NCBI GenBank assembly: GCA_043809745.1
Contig: JBDROU010000073.1
Span: forward strand, 7,969-71,968
From: a bacterium
GTDB lineage: Bacteria > Elusimicrobiota > JBDRMW01 > JBDROU01
Reading direction: 5' to 3'
DNA: 64,000 bases
Position 1 is the stretch's first letter. The number at the start of each line of letters is the position of its first letter. The notes under the pieces are model-generated. The model saw only the letters and a list, made by a program, of their open reading frames with translations. It was not told the DNA's origin and ran no database searches. This document shows positions 16,977 to 29,169 of this stretch, in pieces. Made by a program: the position numbers and the translations under genes.

Positions 16977-17005
16977 TTGACAAATTAATAGTTATGATAT
17001 ATACT
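16977..17005 (+). promoter_or_regulatory. Near-consensus sigma70 promoter (TTGACA-17-TATACT) with an inverted repeat AATAGT-N10-ACTATT overlapping the -10; putative MarR autoregulatory operator
   Basis: ttgaca at 16977-16982, 17-nt spacer, tatact at 17000-17005. About 45 nt upstream of the marR-like start, inside a roughly 420-bp AT-rich intergenic region. Confidence 0.55.
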
Positions 17006-17053: not shown

Positions 17054-17485
17054 ATGAGTTCACGTAAAATTGAAACTGCGAACAAGAGTATTTTGGAAAT
17101 TATTAAAGCATCGAATAACTTGTTAAAAATTGGCGATCAATTTTTCAAACCATTTAATATAACAGCAACTCAATATAATGTGCTTGTTATTTTGAAAGAG
17201 AACAAAAAGAAAATCAGCCAGCAAGAGCTCGGTTCGCAACTTGTTGTCACGCGTTCCGATATTACAGGAATAGTTGATCGGCTTGAGAAATATGGATATG
17301 TTAAGAGAGTTCCTCATAATAGTGACAGAAGAATAAAACTGCTTGAAATCACCAACAAGGGAAATGATTTAATTAATTTAGTAGAGCCCCAATATTTTGA
17401 AAAAGTGAATAAGATAATAAAGGCTTTAAGTATTGAGGAGTTGGAAAATATAACATTTGCATTGAAACGATTCCAACTTACCTAA
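17054..17485 (+). CDS. MarR-family winged-helix transcriptional regulator
   Basis: 143 aa. Central wHTH (ISQQELGSQLVVTRSDITGIVDRLEKYGYVKR) typical of MarR. RBS GAGGAGG. Confidence 0.8.
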   Translation: MSSRKIETANKSILEIIKASNNLLKIGDQFFKPFNITATQYNVLVILKENKKKISQQELGSQLVVTRSDITGIVDRLEKYGYVKRVPHNSDRRIKLLEITNKGNDLINLVEPQYFEKVNKIIKALSIEELENITFALKRFQLT

Positions 17486-18345
17486 TGGGTGACCATATGA
17501 TATTCATTTTTAGGCAGATTATAATATTGCCTCTCATAATTATAAGCTTCTATAAACTCGTATATGCATCAGATCTAGATTTACATAAAATAAAGATTAC
17601 CTATATAGGACATGCCACTACAGTTATCGAGTATAGAAACAGATTAATCTTGACAGATCCGTTTTTTAAGGATAAATTGTTTCTCCAAAAAAGGAAAATA
17701 CTTCCCGCTTTATTTGTTGAAGAACTGCCTAAAATAGACATAATTCTCATTAGTCACACCCACCCTGATCATTTTGACCTAAGCGCAATAAAAGCATTGA
17801 AAAATAAGCCAATTGTGGTTATGCCATGGAATAGGGGCAAAGAGTTGAAAAACGCGGGATTTACTGTTGTAGAATTAGAACCGTATAGGTGCTATACCTA
17901 TAACCAGTATACCATCACTGCGGTTCCTGCTAAACATATGTTTGGAAATTGTTTAGGATATATCATATCAACACCAGATGCGGTGATTTACTTTCCCGGA
18001 GATACAGATTTGTTTAAAGGAATCGATAAATTAAAGGATTATAAAATAGATGTTATGCTCATGCCATTTGCAGGTACCCCTATTGTTGGTTCTATTTGGA
18101 CGAGCAGGCGAGCAGTAAAAGTCGTTGAGATGCTTAAACCTAAAACTGTTATACCGATCCACTGGGGCACATTTGTGAGATTGTGGACTCCAAAGGAACC
18201 GCCGACTCCTTATGCTTTTAGTGCTGATATGAAGGAGCAGATTCCGGAATGCAGTTGTGCAATCTTGCAAGTTGGCGAAGCATTTGAAACAACTCATATT
18301 GTCAGTCAAATAATTATTGATGGAGATAATAATAATAATGATTAA
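17485..18345 (+). CDS. MBL-fold metallo-hydrolase
   Basis: HxHxDH motif in ILISHTHPDHFD. N-terminal signal/anchor. Start overlaps the marR stop (TAATG). Confidence 0.7.
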   Translation: MGDHMIFIFRQIIILPLIIISFYKLVYASDLDLHKIKITYIGHATTVIEYRNRLILTDPFFKDKLFLQKRKILPALFVEELPKIDIILISHTHPDHFDLSAIKALKNKPIVVMPWNRGKELKNAGFTVVELEPYRCYTYNQYTITAVPAKHMFGNCLGYIISTPDAVIYFPGDTDLFKGIDKLKDYKIDVMLMPFAGTPIVGSIWTSRRAVKVVEMLKPKTVIPIHWGTFVRLWTPKEPPTPYAFSADMKEQIPECSCAILQVGEAFETTHIVSQIIIDGDNNNND

Positions 18346-19330
18346 TAATATAGATGCAAAATATGATATCCATGTTCATGTTGTTGGTGATGGCAGCTCC
18401 GGCAGCGGGTGTTGGATGCGGCTCACACCATGGCAGAGATTGCTTTCTAAGGTTATGCTTTCAAATATTGATTTACCGTCAAATGCCCTTAAAACCAATT
18501 TTGATGTTCTGTACGCAGATCGCTTAATAAAATGGGTTGAGGAATCATCTCTTGATTATTTCGTTATCCTGGCGGAAGATCAAGCATATGATGAAAATGG
18601 AAAGGTAATACAAGGAGCAACATCTTTTTATGTGCCCAATGATTATATTTTCGAACTTTCGAAACGATGTCCGAAGTTGCTACCTGGTATATCTATACAT
18701 CCTGCTAGACCCGATGCGCTGGATGAACTTGAAAGGTGTTTAGAAAAGGGTGCTGTACTCTTAAAAATTCTTCCAAATTCAAAAAATATTGACTGCAAAA
18801 GCAAACAATATAAACGTTTTTGGGAGAGGATGGCAGAAGTAAGACTGCCGCTTCTTGCGCACACAGGGGGAGAACATACGGTACCTATTATAAGGAAGGA
18901 TCTCAGCACCCCTCAAATTCTTGAATATCCCTTGCAGTGCGGCGTTACAGTCATAGCAGCTCATTCGGGTACGAAAAGCGGTATTTTTGATGAAGATTTT
19001 TTCCCACTATTTGTGGAAATGCTTAACCGATATCCAAATTTTTATGGGGACATAAGTGCCTTTAATATTCCACTTCGCAGTAAGTACATCAAAGGAACTG
19101 TCTGCGAGGAAATCAGCAGCAGGCTGCTTCACGGCAGTGATTTCCCTGTTCCTATACAAGGGCTCTGGCCATGGCTTAGAGGATTAATTGAGAGTGATGC
19201 GTATAAAACGATACAAAGCGTGCATAATAGCCTTGAACGGGATTATATCATTAAAAAGGCGGTAGGTTATCCGGAAGCAGTTTTTTTGAGGGCTAAAAAT
19301 ATTTTGAGATTACATCAATTGCCAATTTAA
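18338..19330 (+). CDS. Amidohydrolase-2-type metal-dependent TIM-barrel hydrolase
   Basis: HVHVVG near the N-terminus (metal-binding HxH), LAHTGGEH, later His/Asp ligands (AAHSG, HGSDFP). The start at 18338 overlaps the upstream stop, which fits an operon with marR and the MBL gene. Confidence 0.5.
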   Translation: MINNIDAKYDIHVHVVGDGSSGSGCWMRLTPWQRLLSKVMLSNIDLPSNALKTNFDVLYADRLIKWVEESSLDYFVILAEDQAYDENGKVIQGATSFYVPNDYIFELSKRCPKLLPGISIHPARPDALDELERCLEKGAVLLKILPNSKNIDCKSKQYKRFWERMAEVRLPLLAHTGGEHTVPIIRKDLSTPQILEYPLQCGVTVIAAHSGTKSGIFDEDFFPLFVEMLNRYPNFYGDISAFNIPLRSKYIKGTVCEEISSRLLHGSDFPVPIQGLWPWLRGLIESDAYKTIQSVHNSLERDYIIKKAVGYPEAVFLRAKNILRLHQLPI

Positions 19331-19343
19331 TGGAGGTATTCGT

Positions 19344-22300
19344 ATGCAATCCGAAAATGATATAAGGACTTTTCCGAGGGGCTTTATCCCCTTTATAGCA
19401 ACACAGTTTTTTGGCGCGTTCAATGATAATGCATTTAAGCTGCTTGTTGTGCTGGTGGCTGTTTCAATGCTCCCCAGTTCAGATGCTAATGCTGCCGCGC
19501 GGTTTGTGTCCCTCGGATCAATGCTGCTCATTATCCCATTTCTTGTTTTTGCGTCTTTTGCGGGGTGGCTCTCTGATAAATATTCGAAAAAAAAGGTGAT
19601 GGTGGGTACAAAGTTACTTGAAATAGTCATAATGCTTATCGCTATTGTGGGTATTTACATGCAAAATCTTTTTGTCTTGTTTTCATGCATCTTTCTTCTT
19701 GGATTACAGAGTACAATATTCGGACCGGCGAAGTATGGGATATTACCTGAGATACTTTCACCTGAAGCGCTTTCAAGAGGCAATGGCATATTAGCAGGAT
19801 TTACGTTCTTAGCAATTGTGCTGGGTACTGCTTTTGGAGGTGTACTGAAACCCATATTCCAGGATAATCTCGTAGTGATTGGTTTCATTTTACTAAGTAT
19901 TGCGGTAATAGGGTTTCTTACCTCGCTGTTTATACATCCCGCAAAATCATCAGATCCATATAAATCGTTATCACTTAATCCTCTCAGCCCTGTTATAAAG
20001 ACGATAAAAGAACATTATAAGAATAAATATCTTATGGCACCGATAACCGGTCTTGTGTATTTTTGGTTCTTAGGTGCTCTTATTCAAATGACATTACTTT
20101 TATTTTCACAGACAGAATTGCAGCTGGATGATATACGGATTGGTATTTTGCTTGCTGTTATGGCTTTGAGTGCAGGTGTGGGAAGTGTATTGGCAGGCAG
20201 ATTTTCCGAACGTAAGGTAGAAATAGGACTTGTGCCGCTTGGTGCTATGGGAATGAGCGTTTCATTATTATTGTTTCCCGCAGTAGCGCATTCATATATA
20301 CATGTTCTTTGCTTGAGTGCTCTATCTGGAATGTTTGCAGGCTTTTTTGCTTTACCGCTTAATGCGATAGTACAATTTGAATCACCAGCTGCCAAAAGAG
20401 GCGGCATACTCGCATCAGTAAACTTTTTGACCTTTACAGGAATACTCGCGGCATCATTTCTTTTCCCATATTTCACAACTTACTTTCACCTGAAGCCTTC
20501 AATAATACTGTTTGTATTTGGGTGTGTGACATTAGCGATTTCTACTTATTTATGTATTTGGCTTGAGGAATTTTTAGTCAGATTTCTTCTGTGGCTTTTA
20601 ACCCATACTATTTACAAGATAAGGATTGTCGGGAGGGAGAATTTACCTTATCAGGGACCGGCATTACTGGTTGCAAATCATATGTCATTTATTGATGCCT
20701 TGCTTATAGGAGCGGTTATACCGAGGTTTATCCGATTTATAATGCATAAGAGTTTATTTGAAATACCGGTGTTGCATCACTTTACAAAAATACTGCATGC
20801 GATTCCGATTGCGCCGGGCAAGCAGATGAAAGAAGCACTTGATAAAGCAGCCAGCGAACTGCAAAAAGGGGAGTTGGTTTGTATATTTCCTGAAGGACAG
20901 ATAACAAGGACAGGCGGTTTGCTTGAATTCAAAAGAGGAATGGAAGAAATTGCTAGAAATAGCAATGCGCCGATTATTCCGATACATCTCGATAATGTAT
21001 GGGGAAGTCTCTTTTCTTATGAAAAAAAGAGATTTTTTTGGAAGATGCCTAAAAAATTACCGTATCCGGTAACTGTTTCATTCGGGAAACCGCTTCCGTC
21101 TAACGCTTCATCCGATACTGTACGCATGCACGTTATGGATCTAGGCGCTCAGTCATTTCCCTTAAGGCCGTCATTAAGCGAAAATTTGGTAGATGGAATG
21201 ATGTGGGTGACAAGAAAGCGTTGGAATAAAAAAGCGATGAGTGATACATTGGGGCTTGAGTTAAGCTATGGAAGACTGCTAACTTTATGTTTATTACTTA
21301 AAAATAAGTTAAAAAAGCTGCTTAATATGAATGAGCCGGCATTGCCAGACTTAAAACGGCATGCGGTGGGGATTGTGCTTCCAGCCGGTATCGCAGGAGC
21401 TGCTGCCAATATCTCAGTGCTTTTGAGCGGATATGTGCCAATTAATCTGAATTTTACAAGTTCAGAAGAAAGCATACATCATGCTGCCAATGTGTGTAAG
21501 ATAAAATATATAATTACCTCAAAAAAGTTTCTGGGCAAAATTAACATCAAACTTCCGGGGCAGTTAATTTTTATTGAGGAGTTATTCAAGAACATAAGCA
21601 CGCTCGAAAAGGCATTAGCCTATAGCATACTCAAAATTTTGCCATTTTCGCTTTTGCGTTTGATCACGGGTACATATAAGATGAACGCCGATGATGTTGT
21701 TACGGTTTTGTTTTCATCCGGTTCAACAGGGATACCCAAAGGAGTAATGCTTACGCACAAGAATATTCGTTCGAATGCAGAAGGATTAAGCCAGGTATTC
21801 GATGTGAATAGATATGATTGCATAGCTGGAATATTGCCACTTTTTCATTCATTTGGATTTACGGGTACCATTTGGTTCCCTTTGCTGAACGGTTTTTCAG
21901 CTGCATATCATCCTAACCCGCTTGATGCGAAAGTCGTAGGGCAAATGGTGCAGAAAGAACACTGCACAATTCTGCTGGCTACGCCAACATTCTTATCATT
22001 GTATAAAAAGAAAATTAATCCTGAGCAATTTAAAACGCTCCACACTATCATTGTCGGGGCTGAAAAGCTTGAAGCGGATCTGGCAAAAAAAGTTGAGGAT
22101 ACATATCATGTAAAGGTTCGCGAAGGATACGGGGCAACAGAACTCTCGCCGGTAGCAGCACTTAACATAGCTGATGTAACGTTACCTGGGATTAATCAGG
22201 TTGGGACGAAAATTGGTACAATCGGTAATCCTATCCCCGGGGTATGCGCGCGAATTATCAGGCAGTTGGAAAATGGAAATGATCTCATGCCTGATTTCGA

Positions 22301-22802
22301 AAACTGTGCTCCGTTCGGAGAAATGGGGATGCTTTGGATCAGCGGGCATGGAGTAATGAAGGGGTATTGCGGACAACCAGAGCTTACTGATAAAGTAATT
22401 AAAAAAGGATGGTATAAAACTGGTGATCTTGCAAGTATAGATAAGGCAGGATTTATTACATTTCATGGACGGATTTCGCGTTTTTCTAAAATTGCCGGTG
22501 AGATGGTGCCACATCAAAAAATTGAAGAATTGCTGCGTAAAAATGCGCCAGAAGGTATTCATCTTGCAGTTACGGGGATTACTGATATGAACCAAAAAGA
22601 GCATCTAATAGTCTTATATACTGGAGAATTTGATTGCGAGAATGCATATTCAGAACTACGTAAAGCAAACATTCCAAATTTGTGGATACCTGCGAAAAAG
22701 AACTTTTTTAGAATCGACATGCTTCCCGTTTTGGGAACAGGAAAATTAGATCTAAAGAGTTTACAGGAATTAGCTAAGAAATATTTTGATAATGCATCTT
22801 GA
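19344..22802 (+). CDS. Tri-domain fusion: MFS lysophospholipid transporter (LplT-like) + PlsC-type acyltransferase + acyl-ACP/AMP-forming synthetase (Aas-like)
   Basis: N-terminal about 400 aa with 12 TM helices and an LplT-like QFFGAFNDNA motif. Acyltransferase HX4D motif (LVANHMSFID) and FPEGQITRTGG. AMP-binding motifs VLFSSGSTGIPKGVMLTHKNI and REGYGATE. RBS GGAGG. Confidence 0.75.
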   Translation: MQSENDIRTFPRGFIPFIATQFFGAFNDNAFKLLVVLVAVSMLPSSDANAAARFVSLGSMLLIIPFLVFASFAGWLSDKYSKKKVMVGTKLLEIVIMLIAIVGIYMQNLFVLFSCIFLLGLQSTIFGPAKYGILPEILSPEALSRGNGILAGFTFLAIVLGTAFGGVLKPIFQDNLVVIGFILLSIAVIGFLTSLFIHPAKSSDPYKSLSLNPLSPVIKTIKEHYKNKYLMAPITGLVYFWFLGALIQMTLLLFSQTELQLDDIRIGILLAVMALSAGVGSVLAGRFSERKVEIGLVPLGAMGMSVSLLLFPAVAHSYIHVLCLSALSGMFAGFFALPLNAIVQFESPAAKRGGILASVNFLTFTGILAASFLFPYFTTYFHLKPSIILFVFGCVTLAISTYLCIWLEEFLVRFLLWLLTHTIYKIRIVGRENLPYQGPALLVANHMSFIDALLIGAVIPRFIRFIMHKSLFEIPVLHHFTKILHAIPIAPGKQMKEALDKAASELQKGELVCIFPEGQITRTGGLLEFKRGMEEIARNSNAPIIPIHLDNVWGSLFSYEKKRFFWKMPKKLPYPVTVSFGKPLPSNASSDTVRMHVMDLGAQSFPLRPSLSENLVDGMMWVTRKRWNKKAMSDTLGLELSYGRLLTLCLLLKNKLKKLLNMNEPALPDLKRHAVGIVLPAGIAGAAANISVLLSGYVPINLNFTSSEESIHHAANVCKIKYIITSKKFLGKINIKLPGQLIFIEELFKNISTLEKALAYSILKILPFSLLRLITGTYKMNADDVVTVLFSSGSTGIPKGVMLTHKNIRSNAEGLSQVFDVNRYDCIAGILPLFHSFGFTGTIWFPLLNGFSAAYHPNPLDAKVVGQMVQKEHCTILLATPTFLSLYKKKINPEQFKTLHTIIVGAEKLEADLAKKVEDTYHVKVREGYGATELSPVAALNIADVTLPGINQVGTKIGTIGNPIPGVCARIIRQLENGNDLMPDFENCAPFGEMGMLWISGHGVMKGYCGQPELTDKVIKKGWYKTGDLASIDKAGFITFHGRISRFSKIAGEMVPHQKIEELLRKNAPEGIHLAVTGITDMNQKEHLIVLYTGEFDCENAYSELRKANIPNLWIPAKKNFFRIDMLPVLGTGKLDLKSLQELAKKYFDNAS

Positions 22803-22829
22803 ATTTAAATTGTAAATGGAGGAGCTTCT

Positions 22830-23438
22830 ATGCCAAGTATTTATGAACTGAAACCGCTTTTTCAAAATATTCTGAAACCATTTATGAGATTGCTTTATAA
22901 ATTAAAGGTTACTCCCAACCAAGTTACTATTATAAGTGTAGTGCTTTCGTGTTTAGTAGGGATGTTGGTATTTTTTTATGTTGAAGCTGTATGGATATTT
23001 TATTTAGTTCCTGTTTTCCTTTTTATTCGCATGGGCATGAATGCATTGGATGGGATGCTTGCAAAGGAATATCATATGCGAACTAATATTGGTGTGTTTT
23101 TGAACGAGTTGGGAGATATTGTATCTGATATATTTTTATACAGTCCGCTTATTACATTAGTAGGAACATTCAATTGGCTTATTATTGGGACAGTCCTACT
23201 GAGCGTTATAAGTGAAGCTACAGGGATGGTAGCTGTCCAGATTGGTGCAAAAAGAAGATTTGATGGACCTATGGGTAAAAGTGATCGTGCTTTTTGGTTT
23301 GGTTTGATTTATTTACTTTTGGGATTAGGAATAAAATCAGGCATGTGGATTAATTATGTTGTTATAGTCATCATGATTTTTCTTCTGGTAACAATTAATA
23401 ACCGGATAAAAAATGCTCTAAAGGAGGTGTGTAAATGA
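22830..23438 (+). CDS. CDP-alcohol phosphatidyltransferase family protein (divergent signature)
   Basis: NALDGMLAKEYHMRTNIGVFLNELGDIVSD matches D-G-x2-A-[RK]-x8-G-x3-[DN]-x3-D, with Lys for Arg and Asn for the first Asp of the final DxxxD. 202 aa with 4-6 TM helices. RBS GGAGG. Confidence 0.6.
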   Translation: MPSIYELKPLFQNILKPFMRLLYKLKVTPNQVTIISVVLSCLVGMLVFFYVEAVWIFYLVPVFLFIRMGMNALDGMLAKEYHMRTNIGVFLNELGDIVSDIFLYSPLITLVGTFNWLIIGTVLLSVISEATGMVAVQIGAKRRFDGPMGKSDRAFWFGLIYLLLGLGIKSGMWINYVVIVIMIFLLVTINNRIKNALKEVCK

Positions 23439-24415
23439 ATTACATAGGAAAATATTTCCCAGTTTTCAACCAAGAATTTTTCTTACAGCTTGCTGGTGTT
23501 ATGATGCTTACACTTAGCGGAATAGCTGCTATTTTGATTATTGCGACTCTCGTGGTATTTATAATGAAACGTGTAAGACCAGAGAAAGATTTTACTGAAC
23601 TTGAGCAAAGAATAAAGAGTTGGTGGATTATGGCAAGCATCTTTTTTCTTGCCATTATATTAAGTAAAAATGCTTCGATAATATTTTTTGCATTCGTAAG
23701 TTTTCTTGCACTAAAAGAATATTTTTCTGTTATTGAAACAAGACGCGCCGACAGACGCGTTTTGCTCTGGGCATATATTGCTATCCCAATTCAGTATTAT
23801 TGGATTGCTGCTGGCTGGTATGGTATGTTTATTATTTTTGTGCCGGTTTATATGTTTCTTTTTCTTCCATTACGAATGGTTCTTGTCGGAGAAACACAAG
23901 GATTTCTCAAAGCCGCAGGAACAATTCATTGGGGATTAATGAAAACAGTATTCTGTTTAGGGCATGTGGCTTACCTTTTGGCGCTACCTGCTGCTAATAA
24001 CCCAATTGGTGGAAGTGCGGCATTAGTTCTGTATCTTGTGATGCTCACTGAATTGAATGATGTTGCTCAATTTATGTTTGGTAAGATGTTTGGTAAACAT
24101 AAGGTGGTTCCTCAGGTAAGTCCTAAAAAAACATGGGAAGGATTATTAGGCGGTATTGGTACCACTATATGTCTTGCATTCTTGCTTGGGCCATATTTTA
24201 CACCGATGAATAGGTTAGAATCGCTATTTGCTGGTATTATTATTGGCTTGGGTGGATTCATAGGGGATATTGTTATGTCAGCGGTTAAACGTGATACTGG
24301 TATAAAAGATAGTTCTGATTTATTGCCAGGGCATGGTGGTATTTTGGATCGCATTGACAGCTTGATGTATACGGCACCTTTGTTTTTCCACTATATTTAC
24401 TATTTATATTTTTAA
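23435..24415 (+). CDS. Phosphatidate cytidylyltransferase (CDP-diacylglycerol synthase, CdsA family)
   Basis: CDS signature SAVKRDTGIKDSSDLLPGHGGILDRIDSL near the C-terminus. Polytopic membrane protein. ATGA overlap with the upstream gene. RBS AAGGAGG. Confidence 0.75.
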   Translation: MNYIGKYFPVFNQEFFLQLAGVMMLTLSGIAAILIIATLVVFIMKRVRPEKDFTELEQRIKSWWIMASIFFLAIILSKNASIIFFAFVSFLALKEYFSVIETRRADRRVLLWAYIAIPIQYYWIAAGWYGMFIIFVPVYMFLFLPLRMVLVGETQGFLKAAGTIHWGLMKTVFCLGHVAYLLALPAANNPIGGSAALVLYLVMLTELNDVAQFMFGKMFGKHKVVPQVSPKKTWEGLLGGIGTTICLAFLLGPYFTPMNRLESLFAGIIIGLGGFIGDIVMSAVKRDTGIKDSSDLLPGHGGILDRIDSLMYTAPLFFHYIYYLYF

Positions 24416-24426
24416 AAGGATAAGTT

Positions 24427-25068
24427 ATGCAGCGATTAATCAGATTTTTGTTTTTTTTGCTAATTGTAAAACCACTTCTGCTCATAGTACTTGGAATAAA
24501 TATACGGTATCGTGAACGTTTGCCAAATAGTGGTCCTGCGATTATTTGTGCAAATCACAACAGTCACTTGGACACATTGGTACTAATAACGTTGTTCTCA
24601 TGTAAGATATTTAATTCTATTCGGCCTGTTGCAGCACGTGATTATTTCTGCTGTTCTCCATTCCTATCATGGTTTTCAAAGTATATAATGCAAATAATAC
24701 CTCTTGATAGGAAGTTTGGGACATATCATGCTGATCCATTTAAGGAAATTTCGGAATCATTGGATAACAACGAAGTTGTCATTATTTATCCAGAAGGCAG
24801 TAGGGGTGAACCGGAAAGGTTGTCACAATTCAAAAATGGGATTTATCACCTTGCAAAAAAGCATCCTCAAGTACCAATTGTGCCCATATTTATGCATGGA
24901 TTGGGAAAGGCTCTCCCACGTAATGAATGGCTTCTTGTACCTTTCTTTTGTGATGTGTTTGTTGGGGAAATATTACATTTTGTTGAAGATCGAAAAGACT
25001 TTATGCATACATTAGAAGAAAGTATTCAAAGACTCGGAGCAGAAGGTCAATTTAAGGAATGGTATTAG
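24427..25068 (+). CDS. 1-acyl-sn-glycerol-3-phosphate acyltransferase (PlsC family)
   Basis: HX4D motif in ICANHNSHLDTLVL. Motif III YPEGSRG. 213 aa. Confidence 0.7.
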   Translation: MQRLIRFLFFLLIVKPLLLIVLGINIRYRERLPNSGPAIICANHNSHLDTLVLITLFSCKIFNSIRPVAARDYFCCSPFLSWFSKYIMQIIPLDRKFGTYHADPFKEISESLDNNEVVIIYPEGSRGEPERLSQFKNGIYHLAKKHPQVPIVPIFMHGLGKALPRNEWLLVPFFCDVFVGEILHFVEDRKDFMHTLEESIQRLGAEGQFKEWY

Positions 25069-25070
25069 TT

Positions 25071-26129
25071 ATGTGTAACTTTTTTCTAAGCAGATTATGT
25101 TTTAGCTATCAATTCTTAATCATTTCTATCATATTATTTCTTGCTGTCATAGTAGGACTAATTTCCCCATCAAAGTTGTCTTCTGCAGATGATCAATTTA
25201 AACCAACTTTTTCAATTAGTAATGTTAAAAACTCAATGAGAAAGCTTGACCTAGAAAAAGAAGCAAAATACTCATCTCCCATATTAAAATATTTCAATAC
25301 TTATAATTTACCCGTTGAATCAAAACAACATTATTTTGGATATTTCTATGTTAAGGAATGGAAATTAGCAGGTCATGTGTTCATGCCAGAAAATCTTAAA
25401 GCGACAGTGTTTGTGCTCCACGGATTATTTGATCACTCAGGGTATCAAAGTAATGTAATCAGAATATTACTTGAGCATAATTATGCAGTAGCATTATTTG
25501 ACCTGCCAGGGCATGGTTTGTCATCAGGTGATAAAGTATCAATTAATGATTTTTCTGATTATGTATTTATATTCAATGAATTCTTGAAAAAATATAGCGC
25601 TCACCTGCCAAAACCATACCATATAATAGCGCACAGTACAGGCTGTTCAATCGTATATGAATATATTTATCATGAAAAAGAGCACCCCTTTGATAAGATA
25701 GTCTTTCTCACACCACTTATTCATTCGCAGCAATGGGTTATTTCAAAAATATCATATATTTGTTTTGGTTGGTTCCTTAAAAATGTCCCAAGAACTTTTC
25801 GAGATAGTACAAATTCTAAGAATTTTAACGACTTTTTAATTAATGACCCGCTGCAATATAAAAAAGTTCCACTTACTTTTGTAAAGGCACTGTTCAATTG
25901 GAATAAGCGCATAGAATACTATGAAGTAATTAATCAAGACATATACATTATTCAAGGAGACCAAGATTCCATAGTAGATTGGAAATATAATGTTTCATAT
26001 TTGACTAAAAAAATACCCACAGCAAAAGTAAATATTATTAAAAATGGCAAACATCATTTGCAAAATGAAATTGAACCTATTAGAACGAATGTTTTGAATC
26101 ATATGATTAAATATATTGAAAAAGATTGA
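25071..26129 (+). CDS. Membrane-anchored alpha/beta hydrolase (lysophospholipase / monoacylglycerol-lipase family)
   Basis: N-terminal TM anchor. Oxyanion-hole HGLFDHSG. Nucleophile elbow AHSTG. Asp and His later (QGDQDSIV; GKHHL). The ATG at 25071 lies right after the upstream stop. Confidence 0.6.
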   Translation: MCNFFLSRLCFSYQFLIISIILFLAVIVGLISPSKLSSADDQFKPTFSISNVKNSMRKLDLEKEAKYSSPILKYFNTYNLPVESKQHYFGYFYVKEWKLAGHVFMPENLKATVFVLHGLFDHSGYQSNVIRILLEHNYAVALFDLPGHGLSSGDKVSINDFSDYVFIFNEFLKKYSAHLPKPYHIIAHSTGCSIVYEYIYHEKEHPFDKIVFLTPLIHSQQWVISKISYICFGWFLKNVPRTFRDSTNSKNFNDFLINDPLQYKKVPLTFVKALFNWNKRIEYYEVINQDIYIIQGDQDSIVDWKYNVSYLTKKIPTAKVNIIKNGKHHLQNEIEPIRTNVLNHMIKYIEKD

Positions 26130-26149
26130 TTACAAAAGGAGGATTTATA

Positions 26150-27883
26150 ATGGAAACTCATAATTACGCAGAGGAGTTCATGACCAATTGGGACGGCACA
26201 CAGTTATTTTATCGTTCGTGGGTTCCAAAGATTCAGACTGATAAAGCTGTAATTCTATTTCATCGTGGACACGAGCATTCAGGAAGATTATTGGAACTTG
26301 TGGAAAAGCTTGCATTAAAAGATTTTGCAATTTTTGCGTGGGATTCTCGAGGAAATGGAAAATCACCAGGCCCAAGAGATTATGCAGAGCATTTTTCAAT
26401 ATATGCTAAAGATGCCAATACTTTTGTGAATTATATATCTAGGAAGTTTAAGATCCCTATTAATAATATGGTAGTTATAGCAAATAGCGTGGGAGGTGTA
26501 ATTGTAAGTGCTTGGGTTCATGACTATGCTCCTCCAATAAAAGCTCTTATCTTAGCCGCACCGGCATTCAGAATTAAACTTTATGTGCCTTTTGCAATCC
26601 CGTTGTTAAGGATTGGTCTTAAGTTTGGATTGATTAAATATGTTACAAGTTATGTAAAGTCTAAAGTCTTGACTCATGATAAAGAAGAGCAGGATAAATT
26701 TAATAATGATCCAATGATAACAAAATCTATATCTACCAATATATTGATCGATTGTTTTGATATTTCAAAACGTATTATTGCGGATGCTGGCGCTATCCGC
26801 ATACCGACACTTATATTGGCAGCCGGATCTGATTGGGTGGTAAGATTATCTGCACAAAAAAAATTCTTTAATAGGTTATCATCAAAAATTAAAGAATGGG
26901 AATTTTATCCAAAGTTTTATCATGCGATATTTCACGAAAAGGAACGGGAAGCACCCATTAAGAGAACAAGAGAGTTTATTATAAAAGTATTTAATACTAC
27001 TCAACCCCTCTCCACACTCGTAAGAGCAGATGAAGAGGGCTATTCCAAAGACTGTTATGACGACATCAAAAAAACGACATTCAATCCTATATTTCAACTT
27101 AACAGATTGTTGCTCAAGACGATAGGCATATTCAGTAAAGGTATACGGTTGGGTTGGGAAACAGGTTTCGACTCAGGAGTAACATTAAATTATGTCTATG
27201 ATAACAAACCACAAGGTTTTTCAATTATTGGTAGACTTATTGATGTTGCATATCTAGAAAGTATCGGTTGGAAGGGAATACGTCAAAGAAGAGTAAATAT
27301 AGAAAATATGCTTAGTAATGTAATTGATTTGTTGTTAAGAGAAAATATGCCAATAAATCTCTTTGACATAGCATCAGGGCCCGGTCTGTACATCTTAAAT
27401 GTACTAAGGGAATATTCCAATAAGCCAGTTACAGCAAGGTTACGTGATTATAGTCCTCTTAACATTGAAGAAGGTAAAGCACTTGCCGCAGAGATGAAGT
27501 TAGAAAATGTAAATTATGAACAAGCTGATGCATTCAATAGAGATTCTTACAAAAATATAACTCCCAAACCTACAATTGCTATATGTTCAGGTTTACATGA
27601 ATTGTTTCCCAAAAACAAACCAGTGCTTAATTCATTTAAAGGAATATATGAGTGCATGGCAGATGGAGGATATCTAATTTATACAAATCAACCATGGCAT
27701 CCACAGCAAGAGTATATTGCTCGAGTTTTGACAAATAGAGAAGGCAAGCCATGGATAATGAGGTGTAGAACGCAAGAGGAAATGGATTCGTTAGTACGTG
27801 AAGCAGGATTTGAGAAAATTGATATGGAGATTGATCAATGGGGTATTTTCACAGTATCTTTAGCAAAGAAAAAAAGTCATTAA
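26150..27883 (+). CDS. Fusion: alpha/beta hydrolase (lysophospholipase-like) + class I SAM-dependent methyltransferase
   Basis: N-terminal half: HRGHEHSG, nucleophile ANSVGG. C-terminal half: SAM motif I LFDIASGPGLY with a downstream acidic motif. RBS AAGGAGG positions the ATG at 26150. Confidence 0.6.
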   Translation: METHNYAEEFMTNWDGTQLFYRSWVPKIQTDKAVILFHRGHEHSGRLLELVEKLALKDFAIFAWDSRGNGKSPGPRDYAEHFSIYAKDANTFVNYISRKFKIPINNMVVIANSVGGVIVSAWVHDYAPPIKALILAAPAFRIKLYVPFAIPLLRIGLKFGLIKYVTSYVKSKVLTHDKEEQDKFNNDPMITKSISTNILIDCFDISKRIIADAGAIRIPTLILAAGSDWVVRLSAQKKFFNRLSSKIKEWEFYPKFYHAIFHEKEREAPIKRTREFIIKVFNTTQPLSTLVRADEEGYSKDCYDDIKKTTFNPIFQLNRLLLKTIGIFSKGIRLGWETGFDSGVTLNYVYDNKPQGFSIIGRLIDVAYLESIGWKGIRQRRVNIENMLSNVIDLLLRENMPINLFDIASGPGLYILNVLREYSNKPVTARLRDYSPLNIEEGKALAAEMKLENVNYEQADAFNRDSYKNITPKPTIAICSGLHELFPKNKPVLNSFKGIYECMADGGYLIYTNQPWHPQQEYIARVLTNREGKPWIMRCRTQEEMDSLVREAGFEKIDMEIDQWGIFTVSLAKKKSH

Positions 27884-29169
27884 TAACAAAGCAGATCGCT
27901 GCAGCAATCGGTTTATCGCTGCTTTTTATTATTGTCTATGGAACATGTAACTGGATCACCTCACTGAGGACTGATGTCGGTACTCTTTATTTCAACTGGG
28001 AACGACTCATGCCATTCATACCGATTATGATTGTTCCATATATGTCTATTGACCTTTTTTTCCTGGGAGCACCTTTTCTTTGTAGAAATTCCAGAGAACT
28101 AACTGTATTTTCCCAGCGGGTTATTGCAGCTATACTTATAGCAGGTGGTTTTTTTTTAATAATGCCTTTGAAGTTCGCATTTGCAAGACCTGTTGTAACG
28201 GGCTGGTTAGGTCCTATTTATCAATTGCTTTATGTTTTTGACCATCCTTATAATTTATTCCCATCACTTCACATCACATTACGTACAATTCTGGCATATT
28301 TATATGCAAGCAAGACAAAAGGATTCTTAAGGATATTAGTCCATATTTGGTTTAGTTTAATAGGTTTTTCTACAGTTTTTACATATCAACACCATGTTCT
28401 AGATGTAGTGGGAGGATTTATTCTTGCGGCTTTTATATTCTATTTATTTAGAGAAAAGAAACAGGCTAAAATACAAGCGGGAAATTTTCGGGTAGGCACA
28501 TATTATCTTTTGGGGTCTATTGTATCAGTAATGCTTGCTTATTTGGTTTGGCCTTGGGGTGTTATTTTTTTATGGCCTGGCATTAGTTGTGGAATTATTA
28601 CTTTCGGTTATTTTGGAATGGGACCAGTAATATATAAAAAAGAATCCGGCAAATTGCCCCTTAGTTCAAAAGTGATACTCTTGCCTTGTGTATTGGGACA
28701 ATATGTATCACTGCTTTATTATAAAAAGGCATGTAACCCATGGGATGAGGTTGTTAAGGGTGTTTATATCGGAAGGATGCTTAATAGCCAAGAAGTGAAA
28801 CAAGTATTGAACCAAGGTGTATGTGCTGTAGTTGATCTTACTGCTGAATTTAGTGAGCAGAAAGATTTCATATCACAGAATTATATAAATATTCAAATTC
28901 TTGATCTCACTCCTCCAACACAGGATCAAATTAGAACTGCTGTTAATTTTATAGATCATTTCTCAAAAAAGTGTACTGTATATATTCATTGTAAAATTGG
29001 CTATTCCCGTACAGCTGTTATTACAGGGGCATTTTTAATTAAAGCAGGATATGCGAAAACAGTCAACGAAGCAATTAGCCTTATGAGAAACTTCAGACCA
29101 ACTCTTGTTGTTCGAAAGGAAGCAAGAAAAGTATTGGAAGAATTTGTAGCATTTGGAGTTTATACATGA
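27838..29169 (+). CDS. Fusion: PAP2-superfamily membrane phosphatase domain + C-terminal dual-specificity (CX5R) phosphatase domain (PTPMT1-like)
   Basis: PAP2 motifs PSLHIT (PSGH-like) and TYQHHVLDVVGG (SRx5Hx3D-like) within a 6-TM region. C-terminal HCKIGYSRT P-loop (HCxxGxxR[ST]). The ORF overlaps the upstream gene by 46 nt. Confidence 0.6.
   Translation: MGYFHSIFSKEKKSLITKQIAAAIGLSLLFIIVYGTCNWITSLRTDVGTLYFNWERLMPFIPIMIVPYMSIDLFFLGAPFLCRNSRELTVFSQRVIAAILIAGGFFLIMPLKFAFARPVVTGWLGPIYQLLYVFDHPYNLFPSLHITLRTILAYLYASKTKGFLRILVHIWFSLIGFSTVFTYQHHVLDVVGGFILAAFIFYLFREKKQAKIQAGNFRVGTYYLLGSIVSVMLAYLVWPWGVIFLWPGISCGIITFGYFGMGPVIYKKESGKLPLSSKVILLPCVLGQYVSLLYYKKACNPWDEVVKGVYIGRMLNSQEVKQVLNQGVCAVVDLTAEFSEQKDFISQNYINIQILDLTPPTQDQIRTAVNFIDHFSKKCTVYIHCKIGYSRTAVITGAFLIKAGYAKTVNEAISLMRNFRPTLVVRKEARKVLEEFVAFGVYT

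Follow-up and report, generated by a model that had tools for sequence, protein, structure and literature searches.

An enlarged ynbABCD-type operon in an Elusimicrobiota genome, a probable self-contained module for a specialised lipid

The stretch of DNA analysed here (the window, 64,000 nt of contig JBDROU010000073.1 from an Elusimicrobiota bacterium) carries what its protein sequences identify as an operon of the type of Escherichia coli K-12 ynbABCD, enlarged with genes for acyl-chain recycling. We consider it rather probable that this operon is a self-contained module which draws on a private CDP-diacylglycerol (CDP-DAG) pool and yields not bulk phospholipid but a specialised lipid, or a head group donated by a lipid, that is probably of low abundance. 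A preliminary description of positions 19,344 to 29,169 had proposed a dedicated accessory lipid pathway, separate from the housekeeping plsC, cdsA and pgsA genes. Both ideas are supported, the first by family matches and by conservation of the cluster as a unit across phyla. Every family assignment made by eye was confirmed by Pfam or NCBIfam, with the middle genes falling in the expected lipid-related families and not in unrelated ones. A separate CDP-DAG synthase paralogue, a divergent CDP-alcohol phosphatidyltransferase, a fusion of a PAP2 domain with a CX5R phosphatase and a SAM-dependent methyltransferase are all present. The cluster is not, however, of an undescribed kind, since four of its seven proteins are full-length orthologues of the E. 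coli Ynb proteins, encoded in the same order, and earlier work exists on two of these, YnbB and YnbD.

ORF calling between 19,344 and 29,169 gave seven genes on the + strand. Eight had been claimed because the Hydrolase_4 and Methyltransf_20 domains of a single protein (577 or 585 aa depending on the start) were taken as two genes; these domains, the supposed second hydrolase and methyltransferase, belong in fact to one fusion protein, for which the NCBI annotation also starts at 26,150 and gives 577 aa. The six junctions originally quoted, all with correct coordinates, already implied seven genes. The tightly packed, one-strand arrangement is borne out by the ORF coordinates: the successive gaps are +27, -4 (an ATGA overlap of ynbA and ynbB), +11, +2 (or -10), +20 (or -4) and -46 nt (the overlap of ynbC and ynbD). 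GGAGG-type ribosome-binding sites lie 7–12 nt upstream of the ATGs at 19,344, 22,830, 23,435, 25,071 and 26,150. The true beginning of the tight co-directional block is at 17,054 and not at 19,344, which is separated by only 13 nt from the end of an amidohydrolase gene. The features of the locus are as follows.

16,977–17,005, + strand: promoter-like site, TTGACA-17-TATACT (11 of 12 matches)
17,054–17,485, + strand: MarR-family transcription regulator (Pfam MarR, 57 bits), first gene of the block
17,485–18,345, + strand: MBL-fold (UPF0173-type) metal-dependent hydrolase (Pfam Lactamase_B_3, Lactamase_B_2)
18,317–19,330, + strand: Amidohydrolase_2-family protein (Pfam PF04909, 51.8 bits; start codon uncertain)
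19,344–22,802, + strand: fusion of LplT (MFS lysophospholipid transporter), a PlsC-type acyltransferase and an acyl-ACP synthetase (Aas type)
22,830–23,438, + strand: YnbA orthologue (41% identity over 195 aa), a divergent CDP-alcohol phosphatidyltransferase of the PIP-synthase clade
23,435–24,415, + strand: YnbB orthologue (47% identity, 257 bits over 302 aa), a CdsA paralogue (CDP-diacylglycerol synthase)
24,427–25,068, + strand: PlsC-like lysophospholipid acyltransferase (Pfam Acyltransferase, 86 bits; HNSHLD as HX4D motif)
25,071–26,129 (alternative ATG at 25,059), + strand: BipL-like alpha/beta hydrolase (Hydrolase_4, 93 bits)
26,150–27,883 (or from 26,126), + strand: YnbC orthologue (44% identity over 580 aa), Hydrolase_4 and Methyltransf_20 (387 bits)
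27,838–29,169, + strand: YnbD orthologue (33% identity), an eight-helix PAP2_3-type membrane domain and a dual-specificity phosphatase

The promoter-like site is the best on the + strand between 14 and 31 kb; it falls within the 418 nt that precede the MarR gene, the one large stretch between genes in this region. Because promoter and terminator scans of these 14–31 kb yielded on the whole no more than shuffled sequence, the site is only a suggestive candidate for the start of a putative ten-gene transcription unit.

The identities listed above were obtained by BLASTP against E. coli K-12 and extend over essentially the full length of the four proteins. The E. coli operon (b1408–b1411) has the same gene order and domain architectures, identical PGAP product names and the same Asn/Asn signature in YnbA. 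It differs in having no PlsC-like gene between ynbB and ynbC, no BipL-like hydrolase or adjacent Aas fusion and no upstream MarR, MBL-fold or amidohydrolase genes; E. coli ynbA is silenced by H-NS and activated by BglJ-RcsB, whereas a MarR gene is found at the window locus. The operon is carried by 4623 of 5426 complete E. coli genomes. Published work covers only YnbB (CDP-DAG synthase, with a link to the glycolipid MPIase) and YnbD (negative complementation).

Synteny of a five-gene core (ynbA, ynbB, the plsC-like gene, ynbC and ynbD) extends across at least six phyla, among them Verrucomicrobia, Planctomycetes, Acidobacteria and Proteobacteria. With the hydrolase-methyltransferase gene as anchor, we compared 80 loci of other species: all five core genes occur within 6 kb at 38 of these and at least four at 59, and the exact window order A-B-PlsC-C-D is found at 32, which argues that the clustering is not due to chance. 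The PlsC-like gene, the fifth core member, is adjacent at 61 loci. In a 60%-identical relative the same five genes are present in permuted order, and natural YnbA-YnbC, YnbA-YnbB and YnbA-PlsC fusions (P0335 for the last) were found. The cluster is thus kept as a unit across many phyla, but this applies to the five core genes and does not extend to the Aas fusion and BipL-like hydrolase, which were added locally.

Together with the three upstream genes, these two appear to be lineage-specific accessories, seen with the core only in the window. The MarR gene, whose ATG is preceded by a GAGGAGG ribosome-binding site, has no counterpart adjoining the ynb clusters in the neighbour-family survey of the 80 loci. 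The MBL-fold hydrolase has a single N-terminal hydrophobic segment (residues 5–23), TM_1162 as its closest PDB match and a partial match to NAPE-PLD; a PDB sequence search with the amidohydrolase gave no match. The Aas-type fusion, with Pfam matches to MFS_1, AMP-binding and Acyltransferase, scores above the equivalog threshold of the NCBIfam model for fused LplT-Aas proteins (NF006386, 1226 bits against 1221), and its family membership predicts a role in lysophospholipid uptake and re-acylation. Its pairing with the ynb module is peculiar to the window, an Aas-like gene being found near the cluster, 6.7 kb away, at only one of the 80 other loci. The BipL-like hydrolase (NF052543, 244 bits against a cut-off of 450) carries one N-terminal hydrophobic segment (membrane or signal) and is absent from the other ynb loci compared.

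The protein encoded at 23,435–24,415 (Pfam CTP_transf_1, 232 bits) had been labelled CdsA. It is instead an orthologue of YnbB: the alignment with YnbB covers the whole protein and the YnbB-specific N-terminal half is present, whereas E. coli CdsA is matched only in the C-terminal 124 aa, with 112 bits. E. coli YnbB, a non-essential protein, makes CDP-DAG in vitro and cannot take the place of CdsA in supplying bulk phospholipid synthesis (PMC6362211, PMC7018664), which fits a private CDP-DAG pool. The neighbouring PlsC-like acyltransferase matches TIGR00530 below its cut-off.

Published work links YnbB to the MPIase glycolipid and not to a phospholipid, and the operon might accordingly be thought to make an MPIase-like glycolipid anchor, a reading that we regard as unlikely. 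YnbB would provide CDP-DAG, YnbA would join the phosphatidyl group to a sugar-1-phosphate (e.g. GlcNAc-1-P) through a pyrophosphate link and the PAP2 domain of YnbD would handle pyrophosphate-lipid turnover. Overproduction of E. coli YnbB raises MPIase and restores it under CdsA depletion, YnbB has been termed 'dedicated to MPIase biosynthesis', and compound I (GlcNAc-PP-DAG) forms in membranes from PA, CTP and GlcNAc-1-P. Pyrophosphate lipids are also common substrates of PAP2 enzymes and, we infer, the replacement by Asn of two acidic metal ligands in YnbA (see below) would suit a more anionic, phosphate-type nucleophile. However, deletion of ynbB leaves MPIase levels unchanged, and cells survive the loss of either ynbB or ynbD although MPIase is reportedly essential. 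Compound I synthesis was credited by its authors to CdsA/YnbB, with no mention of YnbA. The MPIase glycan resembles enterobacterial common antigen, yet the module is found in Verrucomicrobia, Planctomycetes and Acidobacteria, and both the hydrolase-methyltransferase fusion and the PTPMT1-like domain would be left unexplained.

YnbA matches Pfam CDP-OH_P_transf weakly (32.7 bits) and has the signature N71-x2-D74-G-x2-A-K ... G88-x3-N92-x3-D96-x3-D100, a motif kept in 60 sequences. Its closest characterised clade, which provides its best NCBIfam and PDB relatives, is that of the mycobacterial and archaeal PIP and archaetidylinositol-phosphate synthases. The YnbA family profile best matches Mycobacterium tuberculosis PgsA1 (PDB 6H53) over its full length (E=3e-18), against only 0.019 for Staphylococcus aureus PgsA. 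YnbA shares with these enzymes D2, the catalytic base D4 (D96, D93 in PgsA1), the additional 'DRxxD' aspartate and two arginines of the phosphate pocket (R153 and R192 for R155 and R195). In contrast, the di-metal ligands D1 and D3 (D68 and D89 of PgsA1) are replaced by N71 and N92, invariant in the 60 sequences. With these changes, YnbA could turn out not to be a conventional phosphatidyltransferase at all.

These relationships, together with the resemblance of the YnbD membrane domain to the Aur1 IPC synthase, would suit an inositol-lipid pathway of the Bacteroides or mycobacterial kind, in which YnbA would be a PIP synthase, the DSP domain a PIP phosphatase and the Aur1-like PAP2_3 domain a phosphoinositol transferase. 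Moreover, 'type B' YnbA proteins of Verrucomicrobia and Planctomycetes retain the equivalent of PgsA1 R94, an Arg conserved among enzymes using inositol phosphate, but it is missing from the window and E. coli proteins. YnbA also falls well short of the family thresholds (72 bits against 180, 49 against 170), and no myo-inositol-phosphate synthase (MIPS) was found among window ORFs of at least 150 aa or among cluster-enriched families at the 80 loci. Furthermore, the operon is present in E. coli, which is not known to synthesise inositol phosphate de novo or to make PI. The inositol-lipid cluster of B. thetaiotaomicron, which we take to comprise the PIP synthase BT_1523 (a role supported by the NCBIfam model name), a phosphatase and a PAP2-type IPC synthase, is similar in its succession of a PIP-synthase-type transferase, a phosphatase and a PAP2-type head-group transferase. 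The ynb module differs in its lack of a MIPS gene, its other phosphatase family, its own CDP-DAG synthase and its hydrolase-methyltransferase fusion, and the NF052561 match is only 26 bits. We regard an inositol-lipid pathway as improbable.

YnbD (Pfam PAP2/PAP2_3 and DSPc) has the motifs RP, PSLH and S-T-x5-H-x3-D in its membrane domain and an HCKIGYSR (CX5R) loop; RP, PSxH, H-x3-D and HCxxGxSR are kept among relatives. Its topology was derived from the model and the positive-inside rule. A parallel with PgpB and PTPMT1 had been drawn: the phosphatase domain is indeed structurally nearest PTPMT1, but the fold of the membrane domain is nearer to the sphingomyelin (SMSr) and inositol-phosphorylceramide (Aur1) synthases than to PgpB/LpxE, by a modest score margin. 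The sphingomyelin synthase family and Aur1, PAP2-type head-group transferases, are thus its nearest systems, with PgpB/LpxE-type PAP2 phosphatases as the alternative. PTPMT1 is itself a phosphatidylglycerophosphate (PGP) phosphatase, the same activity is documented for a free-standing PTPMT1-like protein from Rhodopirellula baltica (PMC3576122) and the PgpB family belongs to PAP2, all of which would agree with a redundant or conditional route to phosphatidylglycerol or cardiolipin, with YnbA as PGP synthase and YnbD as PGP phosphatase. In YnbD, however, unlike these two PTPMT1-type proteins, the phosphatase domain is fused to the eight-helix PAP2_3 domain. Overexpressed E. coli YnbD rescued neither a pgpA pgpB pgpC mutant nor C55-PP phosphatase mutants (PMC7413402), which contradicts the idea that the E. 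coli protein acts on PGP as PgpB does; by analogy, the substrate here is probably other than PGP. Since, in addition, YnbA is remote from PgsA (23.6 bits with TIGR00560, cut-off 109), bulk phospholipid synthesis is beyond YnbB and the conserved methyltransferase-hydrolase fusion would have no role in phosphatidylglycerol synthesis, we consider such a route very improbable.

The hydrolase domain of YnbC is monoacylglycerol-lipase-like (Ser113/Asp228/His258; PDB matches to monoacylglycerol lipases around 1e-28) and its methyltransferase domain is of the class I SAM type (AF2 model pLDDT 92.8). The Ser/Asp/His triad and the SAM motifs D-x-A-x-G-x-G, D164 and D191 are invariant. The best match of the methyltransferase in a fold search was 3ocj (uncharacterised), the others being natural-product O- and C-methyltransferases, and this comparison gave no clue to the substrate. 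A methylated phospholipid, as suggested in the preliminary description, is a plausible product.

That the genes are mere neighbours of unrelated function, and the pathway an artefact of family-name annotation, would suit the promoter and terminator scans and the five non-conserved accessories but is hardly credible given the cross-phylum synteny of the core, start and stop codons that overlap or lie at most 27 nt apart with ribosome-binding sites before the starts, and the natural fusions between core members.

In the specialised-lipid pathway that we favour, phosphatidic acid would come from lysolipids supplied or re-acylated by the LplT-PlsC-Aas fusion and the PlsC-like acyltransferase, as their family membership suggests, and YnbB, by orthology with the E. 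coli enzyme whose activity has been demonstrated, would convert it to CDP-DAG. The subsequent steps are drawn from homology only. YnbA, with its altered metal site (Asn for the first and third catalytic Asp) and its retained catalytic base and phosphate-binding arginines, would move the phosphatidyl group onto an acceptor that is anionic and probably phosphorylated. In YnbD, the PTPMT1-like domain on the cytoplasmic side would then remove the terminal phosphate, and the periplasm-facing domain may, as its fold suggests, either hydrolyse the phosphatidyl-X or hand the phospho-head group to another acceptor. The soluble YnbC fusion would deacylate and methylate an intermediate or the product. 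The family matches and the conservation across many phyla support a functional unit devoted to glycerophospholipid-type chemistry.

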